Shown here one piece after another: positions 59,328 through 59,388 of a stretch of DNA of 64,000 nucleotides (position 1 is the first letter of the stretch; every line of letters starts with the position of its first letter). A model generated the notes under the pieces. It searched no databases. It was not told the origin of the DNA and saw nothing but the letters and a program-made list of their open reading frames with translations. The DNA is taken from the sequence record OR896830.1, one strand, 5' to 3'. The DNA is from Escherichia phage LinBro. A program made the translations under genes and the position numbers.

Positions 59328-59388
59328 ATTTTGAGAGGGCTATTTAGCCCCTCCCTTAAAGAGTTCTTACGAGTATTCTTTAAAGGAG

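Follow-up and report, generated by a model that had tools for sequence, protein, structure and literature searches.

The transfer RNA (tRNA) cluster of Escherichia phage LinBro (sequence record OR896830.1) contains a short spacer motif recurring directly in front of RNA genes, which raises the question of its function. An earlier note on the 64,000 nucleotides (nt) analysed here, referred to as the window, had listed three copies of the motif and considered internal promoters or processing signals. We found that each copy of the motif comprises the loop and the 3' arm of an RNA stem-loop, and that these stem-loops, H1 to H5, form a paralogous family lying on the strand of the tRNAs. It is in our estimation very probable that these are conserved RNA stem-loops, and we assign a probability of about 0.5 to the reading that they act as processing or stability elements of a polycistronic tRNA/small-RNA precursor.

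Judged from its sequence, the window belongs to a Felix O1-like E. coli phage. Positions 58500-64000 show 97.6% identity to Escherichia phage momo over the full length of this region and are matched by 371 phage records, for the most part of Felixounavirus. This genus comprises the Felix O1-like myophages infecting E. coli and Salmonella; Felix O1-type phages serve in Salmonella typing and biocontrol. ARAGORN detected 26 tRNA genes between 58665 and 63571, every one on the plus strand, most of them preceded by a generic A/U-rich leader. A consensus scan of 56900-64000 placed strong sigma-70 promoters at 57015, 58518, 58609 and 60006, the last being P45 of the Felix O1 genome paper (PMC3185647). 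In that paper transcripts were followed only for open reading frames, by reverse transcription PCR at early, middle and late times, and neither the hairpins nor the accessory RNAs are mentioned (PMC3185647). A literature search retrieved no transcript-end mapping or RNA sequencing of Felix O1-type phages.

Recurrence of the motif

All three strings listed previously are present in the window, beginning at 59361, 60210 and 62468. The positions given for them had been 59349, 60212 and 62468, so that only the third was exact, with errors of 12 nt for the first and 2 nt for the second string. The core written for them, CT.(A/G)(C/G)GAG.GT..TTTAAA, fits none of the three, because an alignment of the copies requires indels of 1-2 nt, and we replaced this regular expression by two ungapped blocks, GAGAGTCYTTWAA and TTCTTRCGAG. 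With both strands searched, GAGAGTCYTTWAA has exactly two copies in the 64 kb, located at H2 and H3 (expectation 0.027 under a first-order Markov model; two copies were reached in 0 of 300 simulations). TTCTTRCGAG occurs exactly twice as well, at H1 and H3 (expectation 0.18, two copies in 1.7% of simulations), and with one mismatch it is found at 60869, in H4. These probabilities are optimistic, since the blocks were picked after the data had been seen. Stated in this form, the recurrence of the motif is real.

The description of each copy as lying just upstream of a tRNA or another RNA element proved correct: H2 precedes tRNA-Arg(UCU) by 4 nt and H3 precedes tRNA-His by 3 nt, and H1 adjoins a structured element which is not a tRNA. 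What had been overlooked is that the strings form the loop and the 3' arm of inverted repeats, that the family has two further members, H4 and H5, and that the string ends TTAATG and AAATG belong to the generic A/U-rich tRNA leader.

Architecture of the stem-loops

H1 (59351-59388, plus strand, inverted repeat I21) contains the first copy and has the form CUCCCUUAAAGAGUUCU-UACG-AGUAUUCUUUAAAGGAG, with 15 pairs, one U·U mismatch and a UACG loop; its fold amounts to -8.2 to -12.6 kcal/mol. It is situated behind tRNA-Asp and a GC hairpin and directly adjoins the Y-RNA-like module A3. H2 (60199-60233, plus strand, inverted repeat I22), AUCUUUAAGGGCUUUC-UAA-GAGAGUCUUUAAAGAU, contains the second copy and comprises 16 pairs, 3 of them G·U, closed by a UAA loop (-16.8 kcal/mol, z = -5.5). 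It forms the 3'-terminal hairpin of an RNA resembling transfer-messenger RNA (tmRNA), and the four nucleotides UAAU separate it from tRNA-Arg(UCU). The third copy lies in H3 (62462-62485, plus strand), UAAGGAUUCU-UGCG-AGAGUCCUUA, a hairpin of 10 pairs with a UNCG-type loop (UGCG) that fills the 31-nt spacer between tRNA-Gln(CUG) and tRNA-His and folds with -16.6 kcal/mol including its flanks (z = -6.0).

The two additional members are considerably longer. H4 (60807-60896, plus strand; inverted repeat I2 and repeat D18) has a closing stem of 25-28 bp around an interior of about 38 nt (-39.7 kcal/mol, z = -5.4). It closes the 255-nt spacer between tRNA-Ser and tRNA-Leu and ends 1-2 nt before tRNA-Leu(UAG). 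A paralogue of the motif, GGUUCUUAGGAGUUCUCUAAAAAGAUUUAA, forms its 3' arm, and the arm sequence GGTTCTTAGGAGTTCTCTAAAAAGATTTAATG shows 72% identity to the H1 string (D18). H5 (59609-59752, plus strand, inverted repeat I1), AAUUAUCUUUGUAGAUAAG.../...CUUAUCUACAAAGAUAAUU, possesses a 24-bp closing stem that ends in CTACAAAGATAATTTAATG and an interior of about 100 nt differing among genera (-46.3 kcal/mol, z = -4.8); UAAU (4 nt) lies between it and tRNA-Lys(UUU).

Against shuffled sequences, the fold z-scores of the hairpins range from -2.3 to -6.0. A systematic scan for stems ending at most 9 nt before a tRNA 5' end recovered H2, H3, H4 and H5, with single-stranded linkers of 4, 3, 1 and 4 nt, respectively. 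A covariance model of the family was dropped; MAFFT sets H2 one column off the register of H1 and H3, and searches with the exact patterns had settled how many copies there are.

Conservation, base pairing and strand preference

Orthologous regions of nine annotated relatives (Felixounavirus, Suspvirus, Mooglevirus and Kolesnikvirus) and of twenty IMG/VR contigs were compared. H1-H5 were found in Felixounavirus, Suspvirus and Mooglevirus, and their slots are unchanged in every locus of these three genera covering them (20-26 loci).

Substitutions in the stems preserve pairing. In H1, 99.4% of the cells are paired over 11 variants, and one pair varies between A-U, G·U and G-C with A·C in Felix O1 as the sole exception. 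All stem substitutions in the 7 variants of H2 are pair-preserving; in H3 (26 loci, 7 variants) A-U has become G·U, or U·G has become U-A, at every changed stem position. The substitutions noted for H2 and H3 are all transitions, C-G to U·G and G·U to G-C among them, and all of them keep the pairs. In H4, each of the 250 cells (25 pairs in 10 variants) holds a standard pair, and in two pairs both partners have been substituted. Covariation as high as that observed arose in only 1 of 500 column shuffles, and a shifted partner lowers pairing to 36-65%. The closing stem of H5 shows four compensatory pairs between Felixounavirus and Mooglevirus/Suspvirus around a heavily diverged enclosed sequence, with 98.6% of the cells paired and none of 500 shuffles reaching the observed value.

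Because many of their pairs are G·U, folding on the plus strand is greatly favoured for H2, H3 and H4: the values are -16.8 versus -4.6 kcal/mol on the minus strand for H2, -10.6 versus -6.7 for H3 and -36.4 versus -20.9 for H4. This asymmetry agrees with the transcribed strand and points to selection on the RNA and not on a DNA cruciform or on terminal inverted repeats.

In Kolesnikvirus (Erwinia phages) the tmRNA-like RNA ends in the hairpin AAAGGUUCU-UACG-AGAGUCUUU (AAAGGTTCT-TACG-AGAGTCTTT in the DNA), a few nucleotides before tRNA-Leu. The presence of such a hairpin at the same place indicates that the association of the hairpin type with the 3' end of this RNA predates the genera.

Promoters, terminators and other explanations

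Could the copies be internal promoters, either for host sigma-70 or of an unknown phage-specific type, by which transcription is restarted inside the cluster? Their A/T-rich core CTTTAAAG is loosely like -10 elements, for which the real promoters of this phage use TAAAGT, a related block, AGTCCTTAAA, recurs in five intergenic cassettes before small genes at 44.2-47.5 kb, and the genome paper leaves the timing of Felix O1 transcription unexplained (PMC3185647). Yet scanning 56900-64000 for -35/-10 hexamers with at least 9 of 12 matches and a spacing of 16-18 bp gave 15 sites of which none overlaps H1-H5, while the four strong promoters named above were found nearby. H2-H5 end 1-4 nt before the mature tRNA, and a -10 element there, with its start about 7 nt downstream, would therefore start transcription inside the tRNA; moreover, the substitutions in the copies keep base pairs including G·U, and no hexamer is kept. 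A sigma-70 promoter at the motif was rejected on these grounds. AGTCCTTAAA was discarded as a phage promoter, too: the cassettes pair weakly at the block (4 bp) and form no H-type hairpin, and the block precedes a ribosome-binding site, the similarity being a resemblance only. We consider promoters of either type highly improbable. Intrinsic terminators or attenuators dividing the cluster into transcription units appear very unlikely, too. Stable hairpins in intergenic spacers are what H1-H5 have in common with such elements, numerous predicted terminators are mentioned for Felix O1 (PMC3185647), and the annotation of phage Michonne labels the H3 equivalent as terminator. That label we judge unsupported. 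No U-run follows any of the five stems, whose tails read AAAUG, UUAAUG, AUG and GCAGAAG, the stem bases are A/U-rich, an intrinsic-terminator scan reported none of the five sites, and tRNAs continue immediately downstream without a new promoter. Known RNA families gave no assignment either: in Rfam 15 no family hit overlaps H1, H3 or H5 at E <= 1, H4 has a chance-level miRNA match only (27.6 versus 52 bits), and over H2 there extends no more than the end of a tmRNA alignment scoring below threshold (15.9 versus 47 bits).

Alternatively, the hairpins might be repeats acting at the DNA level without an RNA function, i.e. boundaries of cassettes similar to the PeSL (promoter-early stem-loop) cassettes of T4-type phages, or remnants of miniature inverted-repeat elements mediating gain and loss of tRNA and homing-endonuclease genes. 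Like PeSL, they are repeated intergenic phage stem-loops flanking variable modules; the modules 3' of H2 and H4 vary with breakpoints at or inside the hairpins, H5 resembles 22-bp terminal inverted repeats around a variable interior, and the arms consist of near-palindromic CTT(N)AAG units which are enriched in noncoding DNA. Unlike PeSL, H1-H5 have no promoter, lie within an untranslated RNA operon among tRNAs and non-coding RNAs and are conserved at the RNA level, as their G·U pairs reveal. This strong specificity for the plus strand, the helices maintained by compensatory changes while the interiors diverge, and the fixed positions across genera instead of scattered ones make DNA-level repeats a doubtful explanation. 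A PeSL cassette was rejected, as was a miniature inverted-repeat mobile element, the exact copies being confined to the tRNA cluster and no target-site duplications having been identified at the hairpins. RNA sites bound in a sequence-specific manner, be it by a Ro60-like protein, another RNA chaperone or an antitermination factor of the nut/boxB kind, would explain why sequence blocks and UNCG-type loops are kept across genera beyond pairing, and a gene for a Ro60-like protein lies immediately upstream of the cluster. A long untranslated operon is expected to be a target of Rho, and an antitermination factor would let RNA polymerase cross the 5 kb of untranslated RNA without Rho-dependent termination; GGCUUUCUAAGA is, by eye, loosely like what we take to be the rrn boxA, GCUCUUUAACA. 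The boxA-like bases are buried in stems, however, whereas NusB/NusE bind a single-stranded boxA, and a nut/boxA-boxB site, with a CGCUCUUA-like boxA beside a short boxB hairpin whose pentaloop is rich in purines, was rejected after inspection for this reason and for the loops UACG, UGCG and UAA. The loops vary altogether (UACG, UGCG, UGUG, UAA), as ligands of the Ro60-like protein the Y-RNA-like modules are the better candidates, and the hairpin is kept in Kolesnikvirus though no gene of Ro60-like size is found there at the corresponding position. A role in protein binding or antitermination is unlikely in our view.

A possible role in processing of the precursor

H1-H5 stand at the junctions between the modules of the tRNA/small-RNA precursor. 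The part of the original suggestion that speaks of processing signals fits conserved, strand-specific stem-loops at such places; that they are cleaved is something we infer. E. coli RNase III, a nuclease specific for double strands, accepts helices of about two turns. The closing stems of H4 (25-28 bp) and H5 (24 bp), perfect or nearly perfect helices, are long enough for this, at about two helical turns, and would be probable entry sites of the host RNase III, whose cut may break up the precursor and free the RNA domain lying between the arms. Cleavage by RNase P at the 5' end of the next tRNA would leave the hairpin as 3'-terminal stem-loop of the upstream fragment, where it may shield this fragment from 3' exonucleases; this would be clearest for H2, which closes the tmRNA-like RNA. 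H1-H3 probably also prevent mispairing of the neighbouring tRNA sequences.

Several observations weigh against a role in processing and stability. H1 (15 bp), H2 (16 bp) and H3 (10 bp) are short for RNase III, which takes continuous helices of about 20 bp or more, the first two being borderline. Upstream of H3 there is no non-tRNA RNA to protect, and with only 1-4 nt between a hairpin and the cleavage site, RNase P could be hindered instead of helped. The covariation of H1 is statistically weak, 70 of 500 shuffles reaching the observed value, and the compensatory changes in H4 and H5 represent essentially one evolutionary split. The paralogs keep sequence similarity across genera beyond the need of pairing, a retention of primary sequence that hints at a sequence-specific recognition or partner. 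In Felix O1, finally, H2 is missing, the divergence beginning inside the hairpin and being followed by an HNH endonuclease gene; H2 is therefore dispensable.

The processing role has parallels in known systems. The RNase III stems in the early and late transcripts of phage T7 and those of bacterial ribosomal RNA (rRNA) operons are likewise paralogous intergenic hairpins or long closing stems of a polycistronic transcript, located at module boundaries and with some primary sequence common to the copies, and H4 and H5 resemble the 16S and 23S stems in placing about two helical turns around an RNA domain. In contrast to these sites, the hairpins described here are candidates, H1-H3 are shorter than typical, the internal-loop architecture of T7 R1.1 is lacking in H1-H5, and the neighbours are tRNAs and small RNAs, not mRNAs or rRNAs. 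The tRNA cluster of phage T4 also encodes RNAs other than tRNAs, species 1 and 2. These are stable RNAs released by host nucleases, and species 1 is cut by RNase III in vitro. There is no sequence or Rfam relationship to the T4 cluster, and the Felix O1-type cluster is larger and has a tmRNA-like RNA and Y-RNA-like modules as accessory RNAs.

As structured spacers guiding the processing of a polycistronic RNA the hairpins would be an expected and ordinary class of element; it is the adjoining RNAs that are unusual. The hairpins have not been described before for Felix O1-type phages. They are landmarks bounding unannotated non-coding RNAs within tRNA spacers supposed to be empty, and correct RNA boundaries are a prerequisite for testing these RNAs. 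The stems furthermore offer a handle on how a small number of transcripts gives rise to about 26 mature tRNAs and to the accessory RNAs.

Variable modules beside the hairpins

Among the relatives, the modules 3' of H2 and H4 are either the canonical tRNA-Arg(UCU), an alternative tRNA-like element or HNH endonuclease genes. In three loci GCACCTAT... replaces the start of tRNA-Leu. In many relatives, among them momo (L001 3240-3330), L016 and L021, H2 is followed by a tRNA-like element to which ARAGORN does not respond, instead of the canonical tRNA-Arg(UCU). It has the anticodon loop CUUCUAA, a long variable arm, C1-G72, G3·U70 and A73-CCA; G3·U70 is the alanine identity pair. Citrobacter phage Michonne (L004 4185-4650) carries an HNH endonuclease gene inserted between H4 and tRNA-Leu(UAG). 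This gene is preceded by a duplicated tRNA start, the first 11 nt (GGGAGATTGAC), the GGAG of which is annotated as ribosome-binding site.

The tmRNA-like RNA closed by H2

The RNA ending in H2 (60041-60237, plus strand, about 197 nt, transcribed from the promoter at 60006-60034) is unannotated, and we rate it as the most interesting feature of the neighbourhood. It ends 4 nt before tRNA-Arg(UCU) and contains AAAUAAAU-GCA AAC GAC AAU GUU UUU CUG GCA GUA GCU UGA UAG, i.e. a tag frame of 10 codons, ANDNVFLAVA, with two stops. The SsrA tag of E. coli is ANDENYALAA. Rfam tmRNA models align the region of the resume codon below threshold, ARAGORN makes no call, and no convincing tRNA-like partner or separate acceptor piece was detected within the window. 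We flag this RNA as putatively tmRNA-like and as lacking a tRNA-like domain.

Across phage groups, Ounavirinae included, the frame of ten codons is maintained, with changes that are mostly synonymous or from stop to stop. The tag of Kolesnikvirus is ANDAQFLAVA. ANEEMYLAVA is shared by a lambdoid E. coli prophage, where the RNA lies between the genes for the Q antiterminator and the holin, and by one phage each of Klebsiella and Vibrio; an Ackermannviridae phage has ANDNTFLAVA and an N4-like phage ANDDVVLMAA. Among our loci the RNA was located at L007 4455-4661 and L146 2950-3120 and in L147-L150, too. Its core of about 125 nt turned up in 626 phage records; in E. coli, 347 genomes carry it, at 105 places on chromosomes and 247 on plasmids. 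It is almost never annotated. Two tmRNA surveys report phage tmRNAs only for mycobacteriophages and Bacillus phage G, together with a form consisting of the tRNA-like domain only in phage DS6A, and the RNA described here is not among their entries (PMC4131195, PMC11915505).

In Erwinia phage SunLIRen a tRNA-like or tRNA-like-domain element (L007 4250-4420) is located just 5' of the promoter of the tmRNA-like RNA. It consists of GGGUGAUUCUG..., an insert of about 130 nt and GGUUCGAAUCCUUAAUCACUCGCCA, and ARAGORN has to be run with relaxed settings to report it, which it then does as a tRNA with an intron. GGGUGAUUCUG shares an 8-nt identity with what we take to be the 5' region of E. coli tmRNA.

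It is conceivable, if quite improbable, that H2 is the conserved 3' module of an undescribed tag-encoding tmRNA-like RNA and controls its separation from the next tRNA by RNase P, the product being a surrogate trans-translation RNA and the cluster an RNA quality-control island. If so, H2, at a distance of 4 nt from the next tRNA, would govern the release of the tag RNA by RNase P; in momo-type relatives this next tRNA is the G3·U70, A73-CCA tRNA-like element. In this way the phage could build or regulate a surrogate trans-translation RNA, and the island would unite the tRNAs and the tmRNA-like RNA with the Y-RNA-like modules and a Ro60-like protein.

Ro60-like protein and Y-RNA-like modules

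The gene at 57084-58499, which directly precedes the cluster, encodes a protein with the Pfam domains DUF2828 and DUF7788, which is annotated in RefSeq as RNA-binding protein. Its AlphaFold2 model has a pLDDT of 88.6, and the best 12 Foldseek matches in the PDB are all Ro60/Rsr/TROVE structures with TM-scores of 0.45-0.66 and E values from 8.7e-9 (top) to 2.3e-6 (twelfth), including Xenopus and human Ro60, Deinococcus Rsr and Ro60 of Thermus phage phiLo. By its modelled fold, the protein is related to Ro60 as a structural homologue, with TROVE and vWA domains.

Downstream of this gene we detected four Y-RNA-like modules (58829-58912, 58996-59066, 59384-59468 and 59471-59612) of the form [4 bp]-AGAA-GACC...CAGCAA...GGUC-UG-[4 bp], i.e. 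CAGAAGACC...GGUCUG, the outer stems of which covary (TGAC/GTCA, GAGC/GCTC, TTAC/GTAA and TTGC/GCAA). Within the fourth module a T arm comes first, then an acceptor-like stem-loop and finally a D arm, corresponding to a circularly permuted tRNA-like domain. The same order is the architecture of the bacterial YrlA Y RNAs, for which only the surroundings of genes annotated as TROVE were searched (PMC4201824). Rfam gave no match to the modules. In Kolesnikvirus, where the gene of Ro60-like size is missing from the corresponding position, the module pattern is absent from the tRNA clusters, too. The Y-like 5' motif was also found in more than 120 IMG/VR loci, but was discarded there, 111 of 127 matches having no 3' partner, which amounts to chance at 15 specified bases.

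The 95-nt spacer between tRNA-Thr and tRNA-Val (61305-61399) is conserved in three genera, folds with -30.7 kcal/mol and carries CUGAAGACC, recalling the Y-like 5' motif.

Further observations in the window

A degenerate tRNA-Trp-like gene lies at 60459-60541. Its anticodon is CCA, its D region is larger than usual and its 3' end is odd; ARAGORN does not call it, and a promoter-like site of its own precedes it at 60425-60453. The relatives L016 and L021 possess a callable tRNA-Trp(CCA) in the spacer concerned.

Long A/U-rich hairpins similar to those of the cluster lie in untranslated regions elsewhere in the window, at 11525-11674 and 56520-56635, again with near-palindromic CTT(N)AAG units. 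Regarding such units, the noncoding DNA (9.1 kb) holds 14 copies of CTTAAAAG and the coding remainder 4. The context of ribosome-binding sites (AAGAGG...ATG) accounts for one part of this enrichment and other long hairpins of untranslated regions for another, and a wider CTT(N)AAG DNA motif with one function was rejected.

A noncoding region of 1.6 kb (47778-49424), located between convergently ending gene blocks, is densely filled with short repeats, dozens of CTTGTTAG/CTGTTAAG units plus units of the GCCTTAAAAG / GCCCTATAAAGAG type; it might serve as an origin or a terminus or have a regulatory function. Among the small plus-strand genes at 42635-47528, two kinds of repeated intergenic cassettes were observed. 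Type A, at 42.6-45.4 kb, has a sigma-70 promoter inside a GGGGCTTA...TAAGCCCC stem-loop and is PeSL-like; these cassettes match the 57-bp repeats noted for Felix O1 (PMC3185647). Type B is composed of GGGAGG..CCTCCC followed by ACTAAGTAAAGTCCTTAAACTAGGAGATTCAAAAATG.

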